A DNA stretch of 64,000 nt. Origin: a virus. The position numbers and the translations under genes are program-made. Below, in pieces: positions 2,907 through 64,000 of the stretch. The notes below the pieces were generated by a model that ran no database searches, was not told the DNA's origin, and saw only the letters and a program-made list of their open reading frames with translations. Within the stretch, counting starts at the first letter, position 1. Each line of letters opens with the position of its first letter. The stretch spans positions 1 to 64,000 of the IMG/VR virus record IMGVR_UViG_3300045988_123324; one strand, written 5' to 3'.

Positions 2907-3357
2907 GAAACCCTCCTTTTACTACTCTTGACATGAAGTCATACAGCGGCTCATTTTCAATAACAACATCTTCTTTTGGATATCTTGCTTTAACTTTGTT
3001 TGTAGGGACAATATATTGATTCTCAAACAAATTATATAAGTCTAGTCTTGCGGCAAAGTAAAAATCTGTTGGGTAAAGAAACCAGTGCTCATTCGTTTTT
3101 CTAAAATCGCTTGCATTTGGTGGTAGGTAAGGTGTTTTCTCAGTAAAATAAACACAAGGATTTTCCTTAAATTCAGCCGAAAACATATATGATTTTAGTT
3201 GATTAAATCCAATAAGCCCTAGGAGACACTTATACAAAGAATCACTGACACAGATTCTAGGAATGTCTCCTTCTTCATCTTTAACAGCACTTTCTGGGAC
3301 TTTTGGCATAAATGTTTTCTTATTACCGACAAACTCTCTTGAGATATGAAACCACAT
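2899..3357 (-). CDS. hypothetical protein
   Basis: ORF track; ATG overlaps the stop of the upstream small ORF (TAATG). Confidence 0.6.
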   Translation of the reverse strand: MWFHISREFVGNKKTFMPKVPESAVKDEEGDIPRICVSDSLYKCLLGLIGFNQLKSYMFSAEFKENPCVYFTEKTPYLPPNASDFRKTNEHWFLYPTDFYFAARLDLYNLFENQYIVPTNKVKARYPKEDVVIENEPLYDFMSRVVKGGFHG

Positions 3358-3464
3358 TAGTCCTCCAACTCACTAGGGCGCAATAGTAGATATACTCCAT
3401 CTTCTACTACATATACCTCAATATATCCATCTTCTCTAATCGGATTATGTGGCACCCAGCACAT
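3357..3464 (-). CDS. small hypothetical protein (35 aa)
   Basis: Fills the otherwise empty 3358-3495 gap: MCWVPHNPIREDGYIEVYVVEDGVYLLLRPSELED. Stop overlaps the next ATG. Below the track size cut-off. Confidence 0.3.
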   Translation of the reverse strand: MCWVPHNPIREDGYIEVYVVEDGVYLLLRPSELED

Positions 3465-4656: not shown

Positions 4657-5781
4657 TTATTTCGTAATAATAGTATTAACTGCTTCCTCTAGCTCCTTAA
4701 ACACATCTTCATGTTCTTCCATGTATTTAATAACATTGGCTAGTCCCTGCCACTTGAGCGCGTTTCCGTTGCTGTCTATTTTTGCGTCCCCATTTTCATC
4801 TGAGATTGAGAACCATGCACCAGCTTTTTGAATAAGTCCTTGTGCAATAGCAAGATTGATTGTGTCATTCTTTCCATCAATACCCTTGGATGGAGTTATG
4901 CTAAAACGCGACATCTTTCTTGACGGATTTCCTGTTTTATTTTTTAAGCACTCAATCATACTGTAATGCCCGTAGAACACGTCTGGATGTGCATTTAGCT
5001 TGTTATATGATTCATCATAGTAGCTATCCCGCTTTAGAAAAAGTCGAATAAAACAGGTGTGCTTCCACATTCTACCACCAGTGCTAATAATTCTGTTGTA
5101 GTTTGACATATCATCCCGCATTTGATTTATACCAATAAAGGTTATATTATACTTTTTAACGATTGGTGACATTTTAGCACAGAATGTGGTAAGAGCGGCT
5201 GCAATTCCACCCATAGTTTTTTCTTCCATTGTTTTGTCCATAGCTTGTTGAGATACTAACATAGGGATAGAGTCAAGGACAACCATGCCAACCCCGCCAC
5301 TATCCATAAGGTCAAGAAGAATTTGAAATAGCTGTTCTGCTGTTTGATTTTCTGGTGCAATATAGATTAGATTATCAATATCTACACCAAGTTTTGTAAG
5401 CCATTCCTCATCAGAACTAAACTCTGAATCCAGAAGAACACAACGCATAACTCCTCGGTCTTTGAGATATTGTAGCCGCTCTTTCTGTTCCTTGTTTGGT
5501 TTTTCCATAGATTCAATTTCTGCAACTTCTTCGTCATACTCTTTTTGAAATTGCTTTTGTGCTTGTCCAATCATTGAATAGCAAAAGCAACTCTTTCCAG
5601 AAGACTCAGCCCCCAAGACCTCCATAATAGTTCTTGGAAGTCCACCATGAAACAAATAGGTAAATGCAGGAGAAACAAAAGGTATATTGCCAAAGTTTTT
5701 CTTCTTTACTGCTGATGTGCCTACAAGATTAAATTTATATTGCTTATTTATGTTTTTAATTACATCATCTAGTTTACTCAA
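4657..5781 (-). CDS. recA: RecA-family recombinase (RecA/UvsX-like)
   Basis: GGLPRTIMEVLGAESSGKS (Walker A, close to RecA GPESSGKT) and Walker B VVLDSIPMLV. TTG start 7 nt after GGAGGA. Confidence 0.85.
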   Translation of the reverse strand: MSKLDDVIKNINKQYKFNLVGTSAVKKKNFGNIPFVSPAFTYLFHGGLPRTIMEVLGAESSGKSCFCYSMIGQAQKQFQKEYDEEVAEIESMEKPNKEQKERLQYLKDRGVMRCVLLDSEFSSDEEWLTKLGVDIDNLIYIAPENQTAEQLFQILLDLMDSGGVGMVVLDSIPMLVSQQAMDKTMEEKTMGGIAAALTTFCAKMSPIVKKYNITFIGINQMRDDMSNYNRIISTGGRMWKHTCFIRLFLKRDSYYDESYNKLNAHPDVFYGHYSMIECLKNKTGNPSRKMSRFSITPSKGIDGKNDTINLAIAQGLIQKAGAWFSISDENGDAKIDSNGNALKWQGLANVIKYMEEHEDVFKELEEAVNTIITK

Positions 5782-5794
5782 ATATATTCCTCCA

Positions 5795-6550
5795 TCAATA
5801 GTTAGTTCCTATGATCTCTTTTACTTTTCCTCTTTTGGTCTTGTCACAATTAACCTGTCTGCCAACTTCAACATAGTGAATGTTATAATCTTTATACAGT
5901 TCTTCTGCATGAATACTGTTAGAGAACATTACCATAACACCATCATTGGTGAGTTTATCTATGAACTCCTTTAGCTCTTGGTGACTGAACTTATTTTTAA
6001 CATAATTAGTGAAGTTATCCACATATGGTGGGTCAATGTAAACAAAATCACCTTCTTTTGGTGTGATTGATTCATAACTCATACATTCAATGTTTACATC
6101 TTGTAGATATTTAGACATTTCTAATATTGCGTCATAATCAATTACTTTACCATTTTCTATCCACGGAACATTAAACTCACCCTTACTGTTTTCTCTATAA
6201 AGTCCATTGAAACATTTCTTATTCAGATAAATAAATGACGCTGCAATAGTAAGAGAATCATTTGTTGTATTAAACAAATCTCTCACTCTATAGTATTCTT
6301 CTTCTGTATTATTAAATGTCTTTATCAGATCAATAACTTCTTGTGGATGTTCTCTTACTTCTTTATACATAGTAATAAGCCTATGGTTTATGTCAGAGAG
6401 GTGTCTCTGCCCCCCCCCTAGGATTGAAAATGCAAGTGCTCCGCTGCCTAGAAATGGTTCGTAGTAATCATTATACTTCTTTGGCATAAGTTCTTTTAGT
6501 TTTGGAACTAGCCGTGACTTACCACCAACCCAATGTACTAATAGTTTCAT
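5795..6550 (-). CDS. dam: DNA adenine methyltransferase (Dam, D12 class N6-A)
   Basis: WVGGKSRL, EPFLGSGALAF (AdoMet motif), DINHRLI, and DPPY near the C-terminal third. Confidence 0.9.
   Translation of the reverse strand: MKLLVHWVGGKSRLVPKLKELMPKKYNDYYEPFLGSGALAFSILGGGQRHLSDINHRLITMYKEVREHPQEVIDLIKTFNNTEEEYYRVRDLFNTTNDSLTIAASFIYLNKKCFNGLYRENSKGEFNVPWIENGKVIDYDAILEMSKYLQDVNIECMSYESITPKEGDFVYIDPPYVDNFTNYVKNKFSHQELKEFIDKLTNDGVMVMFSNSIHAEELYKDYNIHYVEVGRQVNCDKTKRGKVKEIIGTNY
6410..6418 (-). repeat. G9 homopolymer (C9 on plus strand) inside dam
   Basis: Encodes GGG GGG GGG (Gly45-47), followed by CAG. Confidence 0.95.
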
Positions 6551-13411: not shown

Positions 13412-13445
13412 AAAAAAAAAATAAGAGGAATTTTTCATCCTCTTA
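13412..13445 (-). terminator. rho-independent terminator closing the structural/lysis transcription unit
   Basis: On the minus strand: TAAGAGGA-8 nt loop-TCCTCTTA followed by T10. Stem 13422-13429/13438-13445; the stop codon of the last lysis gene sits in the loop. Confidence 0.8.
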
Positions 13446-17734: not shown

Positions 17735-20700
17735 TTAATATATCACATCCTCTATCATTGAATAATCCTCTGGATTTACATAATCAGATACACTAACATA
17801 GCCACTCCCTAGTGCTGTTTGCGCTGTGCTGTTTATCTTATGGTAAGTATTCGGTCTTACCACTGAATCAAATGTTACTTTATCGTATTTGAATTTACTT
17901 CCATCACCTACATCAAATGTATATACATTCATAACCATTCCAGATGTTCCTGGCTGTAACTGCAACACACTTATTGGTGGGAAACAAAAAGTTAATGTTT
18001 CTTTGAACTTTATTGTTACTTTTGTACCTGTTGGTGCATTTAGCTTAGTAACTTGTTTCCATCCTGCTACTGAGCCACTTCCACCACCTGATAGATTTTC
18101 CCACTTATCTTGGTTAAAGTCTGAAATTGATGTAAATGCTTCTTTTGCTTTCCACAAATTACCATTATAGGTTATTACTGCACCTTTGATATATGGTGTA
18201 TTTGCGTGCCATTCTTCAATCGTTGTTGGTTTTACTATTGCATCCCACTCTGTTTCATTAAATGTTGTTGCTGTGTTCTGCTTTGCTCTATATACAATAC
18301 CATCTTTTATCACAACTTCATTTAGTGAATATGATATTCCTGAATAATAGTCTTTTATAAACGCGCTACCATTTACATAGCCCCATTGTGCTTGAAATGT
18401 TGGAGATTTTGATATATCTGATACTGTTCTATATAAACTTCCTTGATAAAACACTAAGTCATTGGCTTTATAGTCTTTATTACTTGACCAATCTTCTATT
18501 CTTGTTTGTTGTGGCTGTGGTGTTGATGAGCCAGAGCCACTTGTTCCACTTGTTATTGATTCCCAATTTTCATCTTTAAACTCTACTTCGTCCTCGTGGT
18601 CTTTCTTGCATCTATAAATGTTTCCATCATGAACAACAACTGTATCCTTTTCATACTTTTTATACTTTTGCCAATTTTCTATCTTTGTCATATCGCCTAT
18701 TAACATCCAGTTATCATTTTTGTACCTTGCCTGTATGTCACTAATGATTATATAAGATCCACCGCTATCAAAACCAAAATTATTATATCCTGCATATCTT
18801 CCCTCTTGCTTTATAATAAATTTTTTGACTTTATCATAAATTTTTAACGGTTTTGCTGGTGGATATGCGCCATCATATACTTCGGTTTCGACATTATCTA
18901 TACCAACCTTTATTACTCTAAAATGTTGGTAGTGTGTCCAGTCTGGACGTGCAATACCTACCACAAAATTCAATGTGTAAACCGTACCACCACCAACATA
19001 TAGGTCAATTACATCATCCCCCAAATTTGATTGATGCCCAGTGGTATTTACAACACCAATTCCATCTGGATGTTCTGACCGAAACCTATTGCATATATCA
19101 ATACCGCCAGCAGCTCCATTTACTGACTTATGTGTTTCTATACACTTATATAGTTTTCCTTCACTGACTACTGTTACGCCTTTTTTGTAGTTTGCTCCTT
19201 CTTTCCACTCAGCTATGCTTGCATATTGTGGATCTACATGATTAAATTCAGAACTAAAAACTGCCTCTGTATCAAAATCTTCTTTTACTTGATAACTAAC
19301 ATCATATATAGTTATTAACGAATCTTTTTCATATATTGTATTTTTTGCCCACGGTCTTATTGCTTGTGAGTAATTTAGTATATCCCACTGTGACTGGTCA
19401 AATACTGAATTAGCAGCTACCAGTCCTCTTGCTCTATATAGTTTACCATTATATCTTACAATGTCATTTTGGCTATATGCTCGACCATCAAAATCATTGA
19501 TTACAACAAGTGGGAACAGGTTTGGTGTTCCACCTATGTCAACGTGCTCTGACGTTGCAGTAAAATTGTGCATTACATAATAAAAGGTATTCGCTGTTGC
19601 TAGTTTTACTATTTCACCGACTTCATAATTATTGCCTACAGTATATGTGCCTACTTTTATTGTTCCATTCTGTGTTAGTTTTTCCCATTTACTTATACTG
19701 AATGTTGCTTCTTTTACATTTTCTTTTGCTCTATATAGGTCATTTTGATACCAAACAACATCACCACTGTAATATTGCGTATCTGCCACCCAATTATTAA
19801 GGCTCCCCATCTTTCTCCAATAGTCTGATGTTAAGTCCTTGCCTTTTACATTATCAATACTGTAGTAGAATCCACCGTCTGTGTGCCTTACTACACTTCC
19901 TACTGGATAATATGAATCCTTCTTCCATTGTGGAATACTTGCATACATTACGTGGTATTTATCTTCTTGTACTGCCGCACCAGAATTATGTGCTACAGAT
20001 GATTTTACAAGCAGATCTTTAATAGCTATGGGCTGTTCTTCTGAATAATCTGTATTCTGTTTCCATTCTCCAAAATCGCCATTAACAAGTTTTTCCCACT
20101 TTGTTATGTCAAATGTAGTATCTTTACTGTCTGATTTCGCTCTATAAATGTCTTTATTCTTTGTAACAATGTCATTAACAGAATACTGCTTGTTCTGCTC
20201 CCAATCCTTGATATTTGCAACTGGCGTTACTTTCTTCCATAGTGTAATATCGTCTATAGGCTTATTCGCTTCTATGTCTTTAATGGCAAAATAGATATTT
20301 CCATCATCTGTTCTTACAACGGAATCTTTTTTATATGGTTTAGTCTTATCATGCTTATTTATACTAGCATCTACTTCGATAAATTTTGTGAAATCAATAT
20401 CAGTTCCAGATGTGTGTTCTTTTGCTCTTAATAGTATTCCATTATACATTACAAGCTGATTTTCTGTATACTTTGTATTTGCTCCCCAATCATATACAGT
20501 AGCACTTGCTCCACCGCCCAGTGTCTCCCACTTGCTTGTATCTGTTACAGATTCTCCGTTGGTATCTTCTTTTGCCCTATAGATAGAACCACTGTGAAAT
20601 ACCATTTCTCCTGCTTTATATGGTTTTGATTCATATTCAGTTATTTGATTATTGCTTATTTTCTTCCATGAACCTGCTTTGACTGCTTTTTCAAATGTAT

Positions 20701-29512: not shown

Positions 29513-31183
29513 TTACCCCCTAACCCCGACAATGCTTGTAATCTTAACATCGCCGGTATCTGCTATTTTAAGCGTCCGATCTGTTTCTATAGTTACATTA
29601 TACACTAAATTAGCGTCTCCTGTCAAGTTTACTGACAGATTAGCTAAGAACGCATTTTCTAATTCTTCTGATGTTATTATGTGTTTTGTATTCTTATTTG
29701 TTGTGACAATAATTTTATCATATGACAATATTTTATCACTCAACATAATCAAATCCATGTCTATTAATGACAATATTTCCTGCTTTTTATAATACTCAAA
29801 CATTACTATTACTTGATTTTTGTTGAAAAACTTTCCCATTAAAATATACTTAGATACATTATTATTATCTCTCTCAACAATCACATCAAAATTATGCTTC
29901 CCAACACCAGATATTAAACTAACACAATCATTTTCCAGTATTGCGGATAATGTGTTTGTATCAAATGGTTGTCTTGTGACATAATATATTAATGGGAATC
30001 TTGTTGTTGTGTTGTCTAATGATGATAACAATTTATTATCATTTCTATGTCTATTATAATCATCTTCTGCTGAAAAATCTGATGTTGCATCCATCTTTGG
30101 TATACCACCTATAGAATAATACTTCTTACTTACTGGTGGATCATTTACTTTATATGTGCTGTTTGCACTATAAAAATCATCCTGTAACACAAACGATGTA
30201 TCTAACCTATTCTTCAAATACCTTCGTACACATCTTATAACCCCCCGCTTATATGGAACATTATACCATGTTAAATAATTCGTCTGTGTTTTTGCCATGT
30301 AGAAAAAATGAAATCTCTTATCATCTCTCCAATTCTTATCCATAGCCAACACCCTATTTGTTGCAACTAAAATATCATTACTGTCCAGATTTAATATATA
30401 TTTATGTTGGTATATAAACGTTGATGATTCAGTATAGAACTCCCTCTTTGGATTATTATAGAATATAGAAATAAATCCTTTATTCTTAACTATCAAAATA
30501 GAATCGCTACGACGCAATTCTCTGCTAAATATGAAGAATCTATATACAGCTATCATACCATTAAATATCTCTGGTTTATAGTTTGCACCAAACTCAAAAC
30601 ACTTTTCTAACTCTTTTTCATCCGCAACTATTTGTGGTACTGCATCTGATATACTAGCCCCATATTTCTGCTCTTGATACGTTTTTGTCTTATCATACTC
30701 AAATAATATATCATACCACAAATCATACTGCCTATCTCTATGTGAGTTGCATATTTCTATGTAAAGGTATGAGTTGGTTTTCTTGTCATACAGAACAACA
30801 TATTCCTCTATTATTCGATTTAAGACATCAACTATATTTGTGTCATTTCCTATTGCGTCTCCTGTCCTAGCATACTGAGACCTATCTGCCGCCACCATAT
30901 CTATATATGGTTTCTTTTTCGTACATGCTACAAACGTGGTTGAATCTTTTGGTGATGTATCGTCTGACTCTATATATAGTCTATCATCGTCTGGGTCATA
31001 TGGAAATTTAGTCCCACCATTTTTTGTTTTGTCAACCTTCCACTGTTGCGTTTCCTCCACAACTGTTAGTCCAAACTCAATCATGGCATCTTTTATTATT
31101 TTCAGTAACTTCTTTTTAACATCAAGTTCGTTGGAGAAGTCCATTATATTTTGTAGGTCACTGCTTGTGTATTCTATTTTCAT
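29513..31183 (-). CDS. paralogue-block protein (divergent member)
   Basis: ORF track; ATGA overlap with the upstream gene; weak similarity in N-terminal and C-terminal elements. Confidence 0.55.
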   Translation of the reverse strand: MKIEYTSSDLQNIMDFSNELDVKKKLLKIIKDAMIEFGLTVVEETQQWKVDKTKNGGTKFPYDPDDDRLYIESDDTSPKDSTTFVACTKKKPYIDMVAADRSQYARTGDAIGNDTNIVDVLNRIIEEYVVLYDKKTNSYLYIEICNSHRDRQYDLWYDILFEYDKTKTYQEQKYGASISDAVPQIVADEKELEKCFEFGANYKPEIFNGMIAVYRFFIFSRELRRSDSILIVKNKGFISIFYNNPKREFYTESSTFIYQHKYILNLDSNDILVATNRVLAMDKNWRDDKRFHFFYMAKTQTNYLTWYNVPYKRGVIRCVRRYLKNRLDTSFVLQDDFYSANSTYKVNDPPVSKKYYSIGGIPKMDATSDFSAEDDYNRHRNDNKLLSSLDNTTTRFPLIYYVTRQPFDTNTLSAILENDCVSLISGVGKHNFDVIVERDNNNVSKYILMGKFFNKNQVIVMFEYYKKQEILSLIDMDLIMLSDKILSYDKIIVTTNKNTKHIITSEELENAFLANLSVNLTGDANLVYNVTIETDRTLKIADTGDVKITSIVGVRG

Positions 31184-40250: not shown

Positions 40251-40304
40251 AAAAAAAAATAAACCTACCAATATCACTAATTATTATAGCATATTAGTAG
40301 GTTT
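40251..40304 (-). terminator. possible terminator/attenuator hairpin after the tape measure gene
   Basis: 12-bp stem with one mismatch (40261-40272/40293-40304), 20-nt loop, then T9 on the minus strand (A9 at 40251-40259). Confidence 0.4.
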
Positions 40305-46516: not shown

Positions 46517-46548
46517 AATAAAAAAAAGCCCTACTTTTGCAGGGCTTT
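46517..46548 (-). terminator. hairpin + T-run between the chaperone and tape measure genes (attenuator?)
   Basis: 8-bp stem 46525-46532/46541-46548, then T-rich run (TTTTTTTTATTT) and AGGAGGAG-ATG of the tape measure gene on the minus strand. Overlaps the stop of the T frame. Confidence 0.5.
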
Positions 46549-47618: not shown

Positions 47619-49103
47619 TTATGCCTCCGTATTAAGATTCATTATCCATTTCGTGTTGCCAGCTCTGTAAACTTTTTTAGCACCAAGTCTGCCCATAATA
47701 AAATCTTCTTTATTGTTTGCGTTTTCTGTTACTGCCTCTGCATATAAATCTCCATATAATTCTTTCAACAAATGCAACTGACAAGAAGTTCTTTTTAGTT
47801 CCCTGTTATTATAAAACCAGTAATAGTTTTCTGAAACACCACAATTAGAAAATCCTAACTTTTTATATACATCACCACTAAAGAAGTCATTATCAGAATA
47901 ACTTTTTATGCTTTCTGGTTGATGGTCATTGATAAAATGTTTCAATAGTTTTTCAGCCCCACCAACAATAAAATATTTATCGCTAACTACATATCTATGC
48001 AACTCATATTGATTACCACCACTTTTTGCGAACCTTGGAGTCCCAAAAGACATCAAAGAGATCAACTCATTATTATAATATAAACCATAATTTATCTTGC
48101 ATAGTCTATACCACCCCTGCAAGTGATGTTTTTCAATAAACATTTTTGCAACTTGTAAGTCCACTAATCTAACTGAACAGTTTCTTGCAAAAACCCTTTC
48201 TTTTTGTATCAACAACGATCTTATATATGTTTTTATTTTTTCTTGTTTTTCTGACTTCCAGTCCACGTCAAAAATATTCAAAAGTTTAATTCCCATTGAT
48301 AGTGCAACAGAAAATTTATCATAATGATACGTTTTATTCACATTCTTAAATGCTCCGTTTATTGTGGCATGAAATGGGCTTCCATTATACTCAATTCCAA
48401 TTTTTAGCTGTGGGATATAAATATCAATTTCTTTTCCGTTCAAAATTTTTGCCTTTTCAATGTTTTTATCACCAATAATAGAACAGATAAATTCCTTTAT
48501 TTCTTTTTCTTCTTTTGACCCACAAACATGAACAACACTATGTCCACAAGATGTTGTATGTCCTCTCCTCAGATTATTAGCAGTTACTACAACTTCTTTT
48601 CCACAAGAACATTTGCATTTCCACATCGAGTGTAGATTTTTTCTTCCTACAAATTCAACAACTGTAAGCTCCCCATATGTATGCCCAGTTAAATCATTAA
48701 ACCACTCCGTTTTTGTTCTTTCTTTGTTTATACACCCACACGATGTAACCGCACCAGAAGTAAGGTTATATCCCTGAACAATAGTTTTATTCCCACAAGA
48801 ACATATGCAATTCCAATAATCTTTTCTGTTTTTATCAAAATGGCTAAATGAAACAACACTAAGTCTACCAAACGGTTTTTTCCCCAACAGCCTTGTTGTA
48901 TTTCCATGTTCTTCTTTCCGCAAACATCCACAAGACTTTATTCTTCCAGAATTTAGTCTATCTGCTCTTACTTCACACTCATTTCCACAATCACATTTAC
49001 AGTGCCATTTTTTATTTTCGTCATTAAACCACAACGGAACAAGTCTTTCAAATCTTTTCCCTGTCAAGTCAACAAAATTCCACGGACGTTTATTCCCACT
49101 CAT
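47619..49103 (-). CDS. homing-endonuclease-like protein: three Zn-ribbon repeats + restriction-endonuclease-like (Vsr/DUF559-type) core + C-terminal domain
   Basis: Three copies of L.G..FG.L.V......W.C.C.CG......L..G...SCGC. Then EIDIYIPQLKIGIEYNGSPFH (D..[IL]P....IEYNG). Free-standing between polA and the tail genes. ATG at 49101-49103. Confidence 0.5.
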   Translation of the reverse strand: MSGNKRPWNFVDLTGKRFERLVPLWFNDENKKWHCKCDCGNECEVRADRLNSGRIKSCGCLRKEEHGNTTRLLGKKPFGRLSVVSFSHFDKNRKDYWNCICSCGNKTIVQGYNLTSGAVTSCGCINKERTKTEWFNDLTGHTYGELTVVEFVGRKNLHSMWKCKCSCGKEVVVTANNLRRGHTTSCGHSVVHVCGSKEEKEIKEFICSIIGDKNIEKAKILNGKEIDIYIPQLKIGIEYNGSPFHATINGAFKNVNKTYHYDKFSVALSMGIKLLNIFDVDWKSEKQEKIKTYIRSLLIQKERVFARNCSVRLVDLQVAKMFIEKHHLQGWYRLCKINYGLYYNNELISLMSFGTPRFAKSGGNQYELHRYVVSDKYFIVGGAEKLLKHFINDHQPESIKSYSDNDFFSGDVYKKLGFSNCGVSENYYWFYNNRELKRTSCQLHLLKELYGDLYAEAVTENANNKEDFIMGRLGAKKVYRAGNTKWIMNLNTEA

Positions 49104-51354
49104 ATGGTTCTCCACTCCAACATTTTGATACCTCTACATCACATCTTAGTGCTGCGTCTATTCCTACACCACCAGCAAGAAACTCTTTTTTCAAAATAGG
49201 TATTGCTTCTTGTAAATGTTCTTTTGGAACGCTCATTCCACATTCGTCATGTATTGTCAGAAGTATATATACTCCAAGCTCTTTTAATCTTTCATTCCTC
49301 GCAATATTTAGCATAGCCCTCTTTGTAATATATGCCGCTGTTGATTGAACAGGGTAATTATAGCATAATCTTTCTGCCTGTGCAATAAATCCACCATTTT
49401 GTTTTATCAGTATTCCTTTGCGTTCTGCTTCACTGATAATTTCTTTTTTCTCGTCTTGTCCCCAAGCATTTTTCATCTTATTCCAGTATAGATTCCTATA
49501 GTAATCAAACTGCCTATCTGTAAGAATCTTATCTTTTTGTGTTATTTCATACTCAGGAAGATTTAAGTCTGGAAGTCTGCGCCGTCCACCATAGAAGTTT
49601 TCAACGTATCCATGCTTTCTCCCAAATTCTACAACATTTTTTAGATATCTAGCAAGATCTGGAAAAGCAACCATAATAGAATCTTTTATTTCCTGTGCCT
49701 TTTCCTTTGATACGTTTAAATCCTCTGCAATAGCCTTTACTCCCTTACCATAGCAAATTCCAAGACAAATTGCCTTTGCATGCTTCCTGCGCTCTTTACC
49801 CTCTTTGTTTGTTGTCCCGTCTGCATTAAACTCTAAGCAGTCCTCATACTTTTTGTTAAATGCAATAGACGCAACATGGCTATAAATGTCTCTGCCAAAA
49901 TTAAACGATTCTAACATCTTTTTTTCATCTGCCAGTGATGCTACTGCCATCATCTCTTGTTGACTGAAATCTAAAAACACAAACACTCTATCCTCACCTG
50001 CGACAAACATATTTCTTATGTCCTTATTTTTCGCAGGGATCTGCTGGGCGTTGGGATTACTGCTTGAAAAGCGCATCGTATCGGTTCCGCACTGATTGAA
50101 ATTCGGATGAATCTTTCCACGGTGTTCAAGTGCATCTTCTGTGAGTTTATCAATGAAAGAACTTATGAGTTTATCATATTTCTTTACTTCTTCTAGTGCT
50201 GAAAAAATTTCCCTTACTCTTGTTCCTTCATATTTTTTCTGCCCCATTACTGCATTTATGACATGTTTTCCTGTCCCTCTTGGTTCTTTTTCAAATATTA
50301 CACCAGTTTTCATAATATCATAAATCAGTATTTGAAGTTGCTTTGGGCTATTGAAATTTACTGGATATTCAATATCTCCCATGACTTCCATGCGGGCGCG
50401 TATTTCTGATTCTAGCGGTTCTATTGATTTAGCAAATTTATGCTGTGCGTCAACCAACAATTTAGTGTATTTTTCTTTTAGCTTATTTGCTGTACTAAAA
50501 TCGAAATTAATCCCGCGAACCTTCATGTCACATACTAATTTCTGTATTGGCATCTCTACTTCCCAGAACAACTTTGAAATACGCTCAAGTTTATAGTCAC
50601 TACACTCTTTTGTTCCTACAGTGAGATATGGTCTAAAGAACTCTCCTAAGTCTAGGCTCATGTCAGCATCTTTAGCCGCATATGGAAAACCAACTTCAGG
50701 TGGTATATAGTTAAATGGTATGCCATCGAACAATTCAGCGAATTTATCTGCTTTTTTACCACCACTACAATACTTACCATATAGATATTTTAACCCATGC
50801 TGTTCGTTCTCATTAAGGAGATGAGATGCAATTAGTGTATCAAATGTAGCCCACAGCCATATACCAAACTGCACCTTAATCAATACTGTATCAAAGTATG
50901 CGTTGTGCATATATATGTCTGCTCCACTATCTGCAAGTATCTGTAGACCCTCTTTTACTTTTTCTTTACTGATCTGTTTATCCAATAGCATATCTGTTAT
51001 TGGGCTTGTATGTCCTATTGGAATATACATGGCTTTCTGAGACGGGCTTTTCATAGACAGACCAACAATATCACACAATATGTTATCCAGAGAAGTAGTC
51101 TCAGTATCAATAGCAAATACACCGTCTTTTGCAGCTTGTCTACAATAGTCCAACCACCAATCCTCATCTGTAATAAGAAGAAAGTTATTTTTTTCTTCTC
51201 CAAGGTTTTTTTCAACGAGCCTACTGATTGATGCAATCTTTTCTATAAGTGTTCCTTTTTTGAGTTTTATCTTTGGTTTGTGTGTTTCTTGTGTTTTCTT
51301 TAATATGTTATGTATATTCTCAGTTGTCCGACATGGTAACTTGAACAATGCCAT
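49090..51354 (-). CDS. polA: family A DNA polymerase (Pol I-like, with 3'-5' exonuclease domain)
   Basis: Exo I FAIDTETTSL; motif A VFLDFSQQEM; motif B RRKHAKAICLGICYGKG; motif C LLTIHDEC. Confidence 0.9.
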   Translation of the reverse strand: MALFKLPCRTTENIHNILKKTQETHKPKIKLKKGTLIEKIASISRLVEKNLGEEKNNFLLITDEDWWLDYCRQAAKDGVFAIDTETTSLDNILCDIVGLSMKSPSQKAMYIPIGHTSPITDMLLDKQISKEKVKEGLQILADSGADIYMHNAYFDTVLIKVQFGIWLWATFDTLIASHLLNENEQHGLKYLYGKYCSGGKKADKFAELFDGIPFNYIPPEVGFPYAAKDADMSLDLGEFFRPYLTVGTKECSDYKLERISKLFWEVEMPIQKLVCDMKVRGINFDFSTANKLKEKYTKLLVDAQHKFAKSIEPLESEIRARMEVMGDIEYPVNFNSPKQLQILIYDIMKTGVIFEKEPRGTGKHVINAVMGQKKYEGTRVREIFSALEEVKKYDKLISSFIDKLTEDALEHRGKIHPNFNQCGTDTMRFSSSNPNAQQIPAKNKDIRNMFVAGEDRVFVFLDFSQQEMMAVASLADEKKMLESFNFGRDIYSHVASIAFNKKYEDCLEFNADGTTNKEGKERRKHAKAICLGICYGKGVKAIAEDLNVSKEKAQEIKDSIMVAFPDLARYLKNVVEFGRKHGYVENFYGGRRRLPDLNLPEYEITQKDKILTDRQFDYYRNLYWNKMKNAWGQDEKKEIISEAERKGILIKQNGGFIAQAERLCYNYPVQSTAAYITKRAMLNIARNERLKELGVYILLTIHDECGMSVPKEHLQEAIPILKKEFLAGGVGIDAALRCDVEVSKCWSGEPYEWE

Positions 51355-53403: not shown

Positions 53404-53638
53404 GCTGTTTCCTCTCATAATCAAACACTATGTCACCACTATCAAACAACTCTTCTAGCGTTTTATATGGTGTCATATTTTCTAAAAACCAGTATGTCCA
53501 GCAATCATTATAGACACCAGTTGGTTTATGTATACCTGGCGCCCATCTTCTATTCTTTGGTTTTTTCACACTATCCCTCTGTGACGATACTTTTGAAGAA
53601 CTTTCCCATAATTCGTCTATCTTCATGTTTTCAAACAA
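53345..53638 (-). CDS. hypothetical protein
   Basis: ORF track; overlaps the neighbours at both ends. Confidence 0.5.
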   Translation of the reverse strand: MFENMKIDELWESSSKVSSQRDSVKKPKNRRWAPGIHKPTGVYNDCWTYWFLENMTPYKTLEELFDSGDIVFDYERKQREYKRAIEHGDNDTFADNL

Positions 53639-54648
53639 TCACCTCCACTCAATGCTTCTTTTATACCACCTAAAACATATGTAGCACAAGGAATAGCAAT
53701 ACCATTTCCAATGGCTTTATATCTTGCTGAACTCCCTCCGTGAGCAGTATACCCAACTGGAAGTCCCTGTAGTTTTTCACATTCTGACAGTGACAACTTC
53801 CTAAGTATTCCAGAACGGCTTGAACTATTATATGTATGGATAACAGGTATTTGATTTCCACCCGTACCCATTCTTGCGTTTAAGGTCTGTATACAGTCCT
53901 CTCCAACATATCTAAGGGCTTCATTTGCATGAGTCATATCATAGATTGTATTTTTAATGTATCCATTAGTTCCATCGACAGAAGTATCTGATTTTCTCTC
54001 ACTCTCCGAAGTATTCCAAGACACGCTTTTGGACTTAAATAATACTTCTGCAAACCTTCCTTGCCCCCCCCCGTTGTTTGGTCTAAAATCTGCGACAAGG
54101 AAGATTCTCTTTCTTCTCTGGGGAACTCCCCAACCTCTTGCATCAGTGAGCCTCCACGAAATGTCACAGTTTTTGCTTCTAACCAATCCTGCGTTTGCCC
54201 ATCTTCCAGATCTAGGTATTGGAATATTGGTTTCTGAGATTTCTTCAAGCACAGTTCTAAAATCATTCCCTTTATTGGTTCCAAATGCGTTTTTGACATT
54301 TTCCCAAACAATGAACTTTGGGTATTCTCCATTAGTCGCTTCCCTCATCTCTCTTATAATGCGTATAGCTTCATGAAACAAGCTACTTTCTTTTCCATGT
54401 AAACCAACCCTATTTCCTGCAACACTCAAATTTTGACAAGGACTAGAGAATGTAATAATATCAACCGTCTCAATCTCTTTTCCATTAATATGCCTAATAT
54501 CTCCTAACTGTTTAACATATGGAAAATGAGCATTGCTTACTTTCATTGGAAACGCTTCAATTTCACTACTCCACAGCGGCTTTATTCCAAGTCTCTCTGC
54601 CACAAGCATCCAAGAACCAATGCCGTCAAATAGGCTTCCTAGTGTCAT
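53623..54648 (-). CDS. dcm: DNA (cytosine-5)-methyltransferase
   Basis: Motif I LFDGIGS, motif IV SSPCQNLS, motif VI VWENVKN, motif VIII QRRKRIFLV, motif X GNGIAIP. ATG at 54646-54648 behind AAGGAGG. Confidence 0.9.
   Translation of the reverse strand: MTLGSLFDGIGSWMLVAERLGIKPLWSSEIEAFPMKVSNAHFPYVKQLGDIRHINGKEIETVDIITFSSPCQNLSVAGNRVGLHGKESSLFHEAIRIIREMREATNGEYPKFIVWENVKNAFGTNKGNDFRTVLEEISETNIPIPRSGRWANAGLVRSKNCDISWRLTDARGWGVPQRRKRIFLVADFRPNNGGGQGRFAEVLFKSKSVSWNTSESERKSDTSVDGTNGYIKNTIYDMTHANEALRYVGEDCIQTLNARMGTGGNQIPVIHTYNSSSRSGILRKLSLSECEKLQGLPVGYTAHGGSSARYKAIGNGIAIPCATYVLGGIKEALSGGDCLKT
54064..54072 (-). repeat. G9 homopolymer (C9 on plus strand) inside dcm
   Basis: Encodes GGG GGG GGG (Gly199-201 of the track ORF), followed by CAA. 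Located in the variable region after motif VIII. Confidence 0.95.
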
Positions 54649-54672
54649 TTTTCTTCCTCCTTGCACATAGCA

Positions 54673-60544: not shown

Positions 60545-61157
60545 ACTCCTTATAAATATCTTCAAAAAACACTGGATACATTCCATGCACAAGTTCAAGC
60601 AGATCATACATAACCACACGAATATCTCTTTGTGCATGACTATCCAGCCGTAGAGTTAGAATATGTCGGAGTTCTCTAAAATTAACGTGCATAAATATAG
60701 TAGTTGCTAGGCTCTGTGGAAGTACACTCCTTGCAACCTCTGCCGACACCTTATCTTCTTGAATCATCTTCATGTAGGCTGTTTCTGCCATCAACATACT
60801 TGTATGCCATGTAGCGTATGCGTGATTATTAAGTCCTTCTGGGACGATTACCTTGATTTCACCAGACTTATTATAGTTACAGTATCTTGTAGATTCTATG
60901 CAAAATGTGGCAAGCCTATGTCTTGTTAGTTGTGCCATTGTCGCTCTGTCGATAACTAACTTTATAGTCACGCCTGCAAACTCAATCGGTGTTAAGTGTC
61001 TATTTTTAATAAGGAATCTAACTATTTTCTCTGCGCTACCCACTGAAATCTTATCTCCACTCTGATAGCAATTCCTTGCAGCTTGTTCAACTGTATTTAA
61101 GGCTTCGTCATACGAAATAGGATTTATTAGTTCAACACTTTTCTTAACTTTAAGCAC
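60525..61157 (-). CDS. thyX: flavin-dependent thymidylate synthase ThyX
   Basis: ThyX motif RHRLATFCIESTRY (RHRxx[ST]xxxxSxR). GTG at 61155-61157, 6 nt after AAGGAGA. Confidence 0.85.
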   Translation of the reverse strand: MLKVKKSVELINPISYDEALNTVEQAARNCYQSGDKISVGSAEKIVRFLIKNRHLTPIEFAGVTIKLVIDRATMAQLTRHRLATFCIESTRYCNYNKSGEIKVIVPEGLNNHAYATWHTSMLMAETAYMKMIQEDKVSAEVARSVLPQSLATTIFMHVNFRELRHILTLRLDSHAQRDIRVVMYDLLELVHGMYPVFFEDIYKEYGEYSD

Positions 61158-61837
61158 TTTCAATCTCCTTTAGTCTACCTACTGCTATGTTGTAGTATTT
61201 TGGGTCAATTTCACACCCAACAAAATCTCTATTTAGTTTCTTACACGCAATGGCTGTTGTTCCAATTCCAAATGCAAAATCACACACAACTTCTCCTTGT
61301 TTTGACGAATTTTCAATAAGAATTTCCATCAATTCCACTGGTTTACTTGTATCATGAAGGTTATTTCCATGTTCATCCTTTAATTTTACGTTCGGAACAT
61401 CAAGAACATCGGCGGTTCCACAGTTATTTATTTTTACCGCTTTTCCTTTTCTGAAAAATAGTATATACTCGAAACTATTCATGTAGTACAGTCCAGCAAC
61501 CTTGTTTCCCTTATTCCATATAAGAGATTTTATGAAATGGAAACCACAATTTTGTGCAACCGTTAAAAACTCGTACAAATTTGTATGGTTACACATAATA
61601 TAGCAATGTCCACCATCTTTTAGTACCCTAAAACATTCTGGAAACCACTCTTCACATTTAACATTATTGTGTCTAAAAACAGTCCCGTCCATACCACGCT
61701 TAGTTGCGAGAAATCCATGATTTTATGCAATTACCTCTTGCAGTAATCTTATATGGAGGGTCACATACAATTAAATCTACAGACTCATCTTTTATCTGTT
61801 TAAAGAAGTCCACGCAATCTGCATTTTCAATAATCAT
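61150..61837 (-). pseudogene. N6/N4 DNA methyltransferase (N6_N4_Mtase family) split by a 1-nt frameshift
   Basis: 45-codon ORF 61700-61837 (MIIENADCVDFFKQIKDESVDLIVCDPPYKITARGN...) carries DPPY. ORF 61150-61692 carries the rest (EWFPECFRVLKDGGHCYIM...DTSKPVELMEILIENSS..GEVVCDFAFGIGTTAIA). The frames differ by +1 around the A4 run at 61721-61724. Confidence 0.7.
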
Positions 61838-63966: not shown

Positions 63967-64000
63967 GCTTTGCTAAACTACAATGGTATACAGTTCCACG

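Follow-up and report, generated by a model that had tools for sequence, protein, structure and literature searches.

The 64,000-nucleotide (nt) stretch of DNA analysed here, referred to below as the window, covers positions 1 to 64,000 of the IMG/VR virus record IMGVR_UViG_3300045988_123324 and comes from an uncultivated, human-associated phage with a genome of roughly 119 kb. This work concerns two of its genes, which encode a Dam-like and a cytosine (Dcm) DNA methyltransferase and which both contain a run of nine G residues (G9) within the reading frame, and the proposal that these runs act as ON/OFF switches. The window is 100% identical to two longer sequences, the Logan contig ERR589645_594 (109 kb) and a 118.9-kb contig from ENA. 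The databases list its two methylases as DAF57422.1 and DAF57427.1 of Myoviridae sp. ctqfO1 (contig of 119,021 bp), the Dcm protein being identical to the former. The two genes and their tracts are as follows:

5795..6550, minus strand: D12-class N6-adenine DNA methyltransferase, Dam-like, 251 amino acids (aa); PF02086, 1.4e-45
6410..6418, minus strand: G9 homopolymer, putative Dam slippage site; codons Gly45-47, gene nt 133-141, then CAG
53623..54648, minus strand: C5 cytosine DNA methyltransferase, 341 aa from ATG 54648; PF00145, 7e-45
54064..54072, minus strand: G9 homopolymer in Dcm; codons Gly193-195, nt 577-585 counted from ATG 54648, then CAA

The Dam-like protein matches PF02086 over residues 7-230 (profile positions 1-250 of 253) and thereby belongs to the D12 class; it carries both the FLGSGA sequence of motif I and the DPPY catalytic motif. 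Its best match among relatives of solved structure is M.DpnIIA (2dpm; 6.9e-51), the value for E. coli Dam being 1.7e-27, and by homology to these GATC-specific enzymes its target would be GATC. The Dcm open reading frame (ORF) is open from a GTG codon at 54666 (53623-54666), the database start being the ATG at 54648. Its match to PF00145 spans profile positions 1-323 of 324 (M.HhaI, 1.6e-21), and the motifs IV (SPCQ), VI (WENV) and VIII (PQRRKRIF) identify it as a C5 methyltransferase. A search for paralogues inside the window revealed no additional D12 or C5 copies.

A census of homopolymer runs in the window found C9 on the plus strand at 6410-6418 and at 54064-54072, and since the genes of the window all lie on the minus strand, each run reads as G9 in its gene. 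Apart from these two, the window has no G/C run of 7 nt or longer, and the sole further run of at least 6 nt is a C6 at 30241-30246; the G+C content of the window is 35.5%. Both tracts are in frame and read GGG GGG GGG followed by CAR. The original prediction, made by eye, had placed a G9 run at Gly45-Gly47 of Dam, had named a second methylase as the site of the only other G/C run of this length and had given the C6 as the longest run elsewhere; the census and the ORF translation bear out all of these statements. No G/C run of at least 7 nt is present in the dozens of small accessory ORFs of the window, and none of at least 6 nt occurs in the flanks of the same genome outside the window ends (9.2 kb and 9.6 kb, together 18.8 kb); the methylase-only placement of runs of at least 7 nt holds across 82.8 kb of this genome. 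A scan for promoters and terminators near Dam showed no enrichment. The longest A runs on the plus strand (T on the coding strand), viz. A10 at 13412-13421, A9 at 40251-40259 and A8 at 46520-46527, are all intergenic and lie just downstream of genes, where the U-tracts of terminators are expected.

The two tracts are over-represented relative to both composition and codon usage. GGG accounts for 14.6% of the Gly codons in the window, where it is the second-rarest codon for this residue. Ten Gly-Gly-Gly tripeptides are encoded in the window, and the eight found outside the methylases use GGG in 0 of 24 codons, whereas those of Dam and Dcm use it at every codon. In genome-wide shuffles of synonymous codons (n = 1000), G/C runs of at least 9 nt numbered 0.071 per shuffle on average, and two or more such runs were obtained in 3 of the 1000 shuffles. 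As Dam and Dcm make up only 2.9% of the codons, the location of both runs in these genes contributes roughly a further factor of 1e-3. Hence, it is unlikely that the two G9 runs were placed where they are by chance.

Both tracts are homopolymers that exceed the length of about 7 G/C residues within an ORF, and a change of one residue in either direction alters the reading frame. For Dam, the predicted product is 53 aa long with G8 and 52 aa with G10; for Dcm, it is 237 aa with G8, 204 aa with G10 and 203 aa with G7. The claim that any slip of one residue would truncate the enzyme is in accordance with these lengths.

To these predictions can be added the alleles found in related phages. Relatives with 78-95% nucleotide identity were available from IMG/VR, ENA, Logan and JGI, and all comparisons are based upon metagenome consensus assemblies. 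The alleles observed at the two sites are given below, where ON denotes an allele that preserves the full-length frame, OFF denotes one that does not, and the relatives are designated by L and P numbers:

Dam, G9: window, L057 and L001; ON
Dam, G10: L060, L061 and P0257; OFF
Dam, G8: P0266; OFF
Dam, G5: L058 and P0258; OFF
Dam, G6TG3: P0259; OFF
Dam, G12: P0261 (252 aa); ON
Dam, G3AG5 (Gly-Arg-Gly): L118 and P0004; ON, locked
Dam, tract-less (ACTGG, two codons shorter): L062 and L002; ON
Dcm, G9: window and L066; ON
Dcm, G10: L005, P0251 and P0252; OFF
Dcm, G7: P0245; OFF
Dcm, G6: L063-65, P0246 and P0247; ON
Dcm, GGGGGGCGG (G6CG2; Gly-Gly-Arg, Gly to Arg): L003, L004 and P0242; ON
Dcm, tract-less (TGTGGA): L067; ON

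Tract length thus varies at both sites, with in-frame as well as out-of-frame states, among close genomes (clusters of at least 84-90% identity). Where the databases contain truncated proteins, their C-termini agree with the predicted frameshift products, save for an Ile/Thr change in the flank of P0257: the Dam stubs end in GGGAE(I/T)PL at 52 aa (G10) and in GGGRDTSLT at 53 aa (G8), and those of Dcm in NNGGARKVCRSII at 203 aa (G7) and in NNGGGARKVCRSII at 204 aa (G10). Among the 15 members listed of the 90%-identity cluster of Dam, there are at least 6 distinct OFF C-terminal halves as against 5 full-length forms, and among the 15 listed for the corresponding cluster of Dcm, at least 3 OFF alleles as against 10 full-length forms. 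A scan of IMG/VR for further alleles by DNA pattern returned only loci that were already known, and a similar scan of the JGI metagenomes yielded one additional allele, G3AG5.

When compared by similarity, the ON and OFF alleles are intermixed, and alleles of opposite state can be nearest neighbours. The OFF Dcm gene of L005 (G10) is 95.3% identical to the ON gene of L066 (G9), and the Dcm of the window (G9) is 95.4% identical to that of L003, where the tract is interrupted; the two G9 alleles of Dcm, from the window and L066, are just 84.5% identical to each other. The G9 state has been kept across sub-lineages that are 84-86% identical. As the G9 alleles have diverged to this extent, G9 is an old state, and the derived lengths arise repeatedly inside the sub-lineages. 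The OFF alleles otherwise retain an intact downstream ORF and most of them are without a second lesion. These alleles suggest that the phage population holds both methylated and unmethylated variants, and the in-frame and frameshifted lengths together lend support to the ON/OFF contingency switch that had originally been proposed. That proposal would have been refuted by tracts of invariant length, by relatives that encode the same glycines with mixed codons or by a tract that was an artefact of assembly. The lengths are found to vary; a full length series is present, although interrupted and tract-less alleles exist as well; and the tract is seen again at identical codons in assemblies made independently from different samples.

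The last of these observations bears upon the possibility that the runs are errors of sequencing or assembly. Homopolymers are error-prone and all of the sequences are metagenome assemblies. However, the same tract is found at the same codons in independent samples processed by different assemblers (JGI, ENA, Logan, TPA), where it is in frame and has conserved flanks, and the in-frame G6 and G12 alleles as well as the internal substitutions (G6CG2, G3AG5 and G6TG3) are unlike read errors of the slippage type. An artefactual origin of the tracts is, hence, hardly credible.

The position of the tracts in the two proteins is also informative. An AlphaFold2 model of Dam, with a mean pLDDT of 85.7, shows residues 43-48 as a coil between the motif I region and the strand 49-53, and homologues vary at this site in both length and sequence, with indels that include a one-residue gap in M.DpnIIA; the tract had indeed been expected to lie in a loop past the AdoMet motif. 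In Dcm, it is located within a clade-specific insertion of 3-4 residues directly after motif VIII (QRRKRIFLVADF), at the start of the variable region. In view of the indels that homologues show at both loops, the three glycines are not needed by the fold; glycines can be gained or lost at the sites of the tracts, as is seen from the G6 and G12 alleles. These results concern a second alternative, according to which G9 has a role at the level of RNA or protein, either because a loop of three glycines is required or because transcriptional or ribosomal slippage provides low-level or alternative products. RNA polymerase slippage can occur at long homopolymers, and it would make the OFF alleles leaky, possibly as an additional effect. 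Nevertheless, the three glycines are replaced or deleted in homologues and are encoded by a rare codon, the alternative frames of Dam both stop within a few codons so that no alternative product is evident, and it is the length of the DNA tract itself that differs among genomes. We consider such a role for G9 to be quite improbable.

A third methylase carries a comparable tract in some of the relatives. A small methyltransferase of phrog_757 (1e-51 to 1e-52), for which the window has no counterpart, is encoded in these relatives between Dam and UvsX, and its tracts all occupy a single position, at which a length of G9 would preserve the frame:

L001, 3770-4391 (= L052 1500-2120): phrog_757 methyltransferase gene, G10

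The length at this site is G8 in L060 (2759-2766) and L061 (2271-2278), and the gene of L062 (10763-11383) is intact and tract-less. In L001 the gene also has a TAA replacing the Glu codon of its ENP motif, and in L058 an HNH endonuclease gene occupies the phrog_757 slot between Dam and UvsX. Based upon the tracts in Dam, Dcm and phrog_757, methylases of three unrelated folds have acquired the same device within a single clade of phages. A common flanking motif at the three tracts, such as the site of a nuclease or recombinase, was also considered and rejected, a 3' CA being all that they have in common. The states of the loci combine freely: Dam and Dcm are both ON in the window, L001 has Dam ON and phrog_757 OFF, and both of these are OFF in L060. 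Two further combinations, in which the pairing was deduced from agreement in the lengths of the longest contigs and not read from one sequence, are Dam G9 ON with Dcm G6 ON (contig of 119,087 bp) and Dam G12 ON with Dcm G7 OFF (contig of 119,589 bp). The Dam and Dcm loci, and likewise phrog_757 in the relatives, appear to switch independently, in which case the phage population would be a mix of Dam+/- and Dcm+/- genotypes.

The window contains one more methylase gene, which is broken by a lesion of a different kind:

61150..61837, minus strand: third methylase gene, PF01555 N6_N4, disrupted where a single additional A gives an A4 run (61721-61724)

It is divided into an N fragment (61700-61837) and a C fragment (61150-61692), and the repaired protein matches profile positions 1-220 of 221 (6.7e-38). 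In L054 the run is A3 and the frame is kept, but codon 14, which is CAG in the window, is an in-frame TAG. As the lesions differ, this gene has been inactivated independently in the two lineages. Recoding of the stop codon was considered for the TAG of L054 and set aside, since the TAG occurs only once, there was no sign of a suppressor tRNA and the TAA of L001 does not fit; the window contains no tRNA genes.

Such lesions are central to the alternative that has most to be said for it, which is that the tracts are tolerated mutational hotspots. According to this explanation, poly-G runs would arise by chance expansion, be purged from essential genes and be tolerated in dispensable methylases, so that the alleles record decay. 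Several observations speak in its favour and weigh against a switch. Methylases of this lineage have also been hit by lesions outside the repeats (the A3-to-A4 frameshift in the window, the TAG of L054 and the TAA of L001, which accompanies G10 in the same phrog_757 gene); the G5 allele of Dam, found on 4-6 contigs, is probably a dead end; and these facts together indicate that loss of dispensable genes also occurs. Interrupted and tract-less alleles are common. Poly-G is found outside methylases too in the relatives, viz. in the RecU resolvase gene of L062, where a G8 (5240-5247) is in frame close to the 5' end, and in L058, where a G13 (19143-19155) occurs in an ORF of 38 aa located upstream of a TnpB (OrfB_IS605) gene. 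The statement that such tracts occur only in methylases therefore stands for the 82.8 kb of this genome and fails for its relatives. Two further points weigh against a switch: the three synonymous third positions are not conserved to an extent that is significant by itself, fourfold-degenerate sites differing by 19-33% among G9 alleles, and a small share of the +/-1 calls at G9 and G10 could be consensus errors of short reads. However, chance expansion in dispensable genes does not account for the small accessory ORFs that are devoid of G/C runs of at least 7 nt, or for the Gly-Gly-Gly sites outside methylases, which never use GGG. Three methylase families have converged on the same in-frame G9 design, G9 has been kept in the diverged sub-lineages while derived alleles arose within each of them, and a second lesion is missing from most OFF alleles. 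In view of these results, we regard decay at a tolerated hotspot as unlikely, though clearly less so than the other two alternatives.

The genome from which the window comes encodes a family-A DNA polymerase, a DnaB-like helicase, a Toprim primase, clamp-like and SSB-like proteins and a UvsX-like recombinase, and further RecU, ThyX, dUTPase and NrdD; judging by these genes, this is a large phage equipped with machinery of its own for replication. Dam has small ORFs on one side and the UvsX/RecA-like recombinase gene on the other, and Dcm is neighboured by the SSB-like and the sliding-clamp-like genes. No recognisable restriction enzyme or nuclease gene lies beside either of them, and on this basis both are orphan methylases. 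A megablast search of both gene regions against GenBank phages gave no match, and in a protein search of cultured phages the nearest methylase homologues, with at most 49% identity, were from phages of Firmicutes. TnpB/IS605-type genes are absent from the window region and are present in the relatives at varied positions, one or two in each (L057, 3360-4475 and 13070-14251; L058, 19513-20484; L062, 8420-9571; L119, 13447-14562). Identification of the host by means of the TnpB gene of a relative was attempted against 185,579 species genomes and given up, as the best match (66%, a Succinivibrio metagenome-assembled genome) is too distant to name a host; further matches were to Veillonellaceae and Mogibacterium (55-63%). 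The nrdD gene, seen in L120 (5670-8918; same genome, about 1-4 kb past window position 64000), was called as three separate pieces, between which lies an HNH_3 endonuclease ORF, and this suggests a homing insertion of the intron or intein type. Going by the TnpB/IS605-type genes of the relatives, mobile elements are active in this phage lineage. Lastly, a 498-aa protein resembling HNH/homing endonucleases (47619-49115, minus strand; phrog_559, 1.5e-72) is encoded directly downstream of the DNA polymerase gene; its match to the Mom family PF25680 is weak and sub-threshold (19.4 bits, the cutoff being 27.1).

Palindromes of the restriction-site type are avoided to an extreme degree in the window, which lacks many of the 6-bp ones altogether. 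Observed and expected counts are 0 and 43.7 for GGCC, 1 and 29.5 for CCGG, 0 and 13.8 for GAATTC, 0 and 10.8 for CCATGG, 0 and 9.8 for CTGCAG, 0 and 11.4 for TGTACA, 1 and 17 for ATGCAT, and 1 and 15 for CTTAAG. Judged from these counts, restriction pressure on the phage is evident. GATC is merely halved (109 observed, 208.6 expected; ratio 0.52), which is consistent with sites that are covered by the Dam-like enzyme rather than removed. The repeated inactivation of methylases implies that methylation is sometimes disadvantageous, which fits fluctuating selection and equally well simple decay.

The tracts, their non-random placement and the natural ON and OFF length alleles are matters of observation, and the explanation that we consider probable for them is that each G9, inside an orphan methyltransferase gene of the phage, works as a contingency switch of the slipped-strand (simple-sequence-repeat) type. 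The rate and reversibility of slippage, the methylation targets and the benefit for fitness are what we infer in this explanation. While the phage genome is replicated, the new strand and its template would misalign at G9:C9 and one G would be gained or lost. Lengths of 6, 9 and 12 would keep the frame and give the full-length enzyme, and other lengths would lead to a stop within 6-45 codons and hence a null allele, the Dam stub stopping before the DPPY motif and the Dcm stub being without the target-recognition region and motifs IX-X. Progeny DNA of an OFF genome would be unmethylated at the sites of the enzyme and that of an ON genome methylated; as the enzyme acts in trans, the methylation state of a new variant would appear one infection cycle later. 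Methylated DNA should evade classical restriction and be exposed to methylation-dependent (Type IV or DpnI-like) nucleases, with the opposite being expected for unmethylated DNA. The selective value of the switch would most likely consist in hedging between these two types of restriction.

A broader proposal, in which our confidence falls somewhat short of even, is that this is a virulent-type phage of the human microbiome with a combinatorial "epigenetic phasotype", in which 2-3 independent G9 methyltransferases would give 4-8 virion methylation types per burst, and that it represents a widespread, uncatalogued anti-restriction strategy that could be read from metagenomes as ON/OFF allele frequencies. 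Poly-G tracts were also seen in unrelated C5 methylases of phages or prophages. In a prophage family with 41% G+C, G7 corresponds to an intact 387-aa gene (about 25 loci, as in L022) and G8 splits the gene (L050, 3711-3718); in the viral contig L048, with 58% G+C, the gene is split by G11 (3356-3366), and its frame would be restored with G12. These cases suggest that the strategy is widespread among uncultivated phages. Should the tracts of the present lineage act as switches, poly-G in orphan methylases would provide a sequence-only marker of anti-restriction bet-hedging in viromes, with ON/OFF ratios obtainable for each sample, and would explain the frequent annotation of split or truncated methylases in phage metagenome assemblies. 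As regards annotation, the database "proteins" of 52, 53, 191, 203 and 204 aa are phase-OFF halves of one gene and not separate genes.

The mechanism is already known in kind. In bacterial phasevarions, poly-G or other repeats within the mod and hsd genes of Haemophilus, Neisseria, Helicobacter and Campylobacter cause slipped-strand ON/OFF switching, and the genes described here resemble the phasevarion methyltransferases in having a repeat tract within a methylase ORF. However, phasevarion genes are chromosomal, belong to Type I, IIG or III restriction-modification systems and act via host gene regulation, whereas the present D12 and C5 enzymes are phage-borne, Type II-like orphans whose genes are located in a replication and recombination module of the phage rather than on a bacterial chromosome. 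As they have no restriction-modification partner, they are not members of a phasevarion, though the mechanism is alike. Among phages, a poly-G tract was reportedly described in a methylase gene of the Bordetella phage BPP-1 by Liu et al. in 2004, an account known here second-hand through a citing paper; by that account, this tract is likewise located in a methylase gene.

A closely comparable case is the agt gene of phage T2, in which a 9-nt A run toggles DNA glucosylation and, as shown experimentally, sensitivity to TgvAB as against McrA/BC (Gomez, Barrick and Waters, 10.1101/2025.10.21.683753). Its +/-1 null alleles revert about 1000-fold faster than point mutants, and the frequency of agt mutants is about 7e-4 (10.1101/2025.10.21.683753). 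Both systems have a 9-nt homopolymer within a DNA-modification gene of a phage. In contrast to the A9 of a glucosyltransferase, studied by experiment in a cultured coliphage, those reported here are G9 tracts in two (three in the relatives) orphan methyltransferases of an uncultivated phage, known from natural allelic variation alone. If these tracts switch, they represent a natural example of phage contingency loci that act on DNA methylation, such loci having hitherto been demonstrated just for glucosylation in laboratory T-even phages. The Fletchervirus phages of Campylobacter also reportedly possess hypermutable poly-G tracts within ORFs, of 7-11 bases, which create subpopulations, but these are located in receptor-binding genes (Sorensen et al., 2021, Cell Rep 35:109214). 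What is new here, in comparison with these precedents, is the presence of several methylases that appear to be independently switchable in one uncultivated phage lineage together with an allelic series read from metagenomes, which neither the Fletchervirus case nor that of BPP-1 describes.

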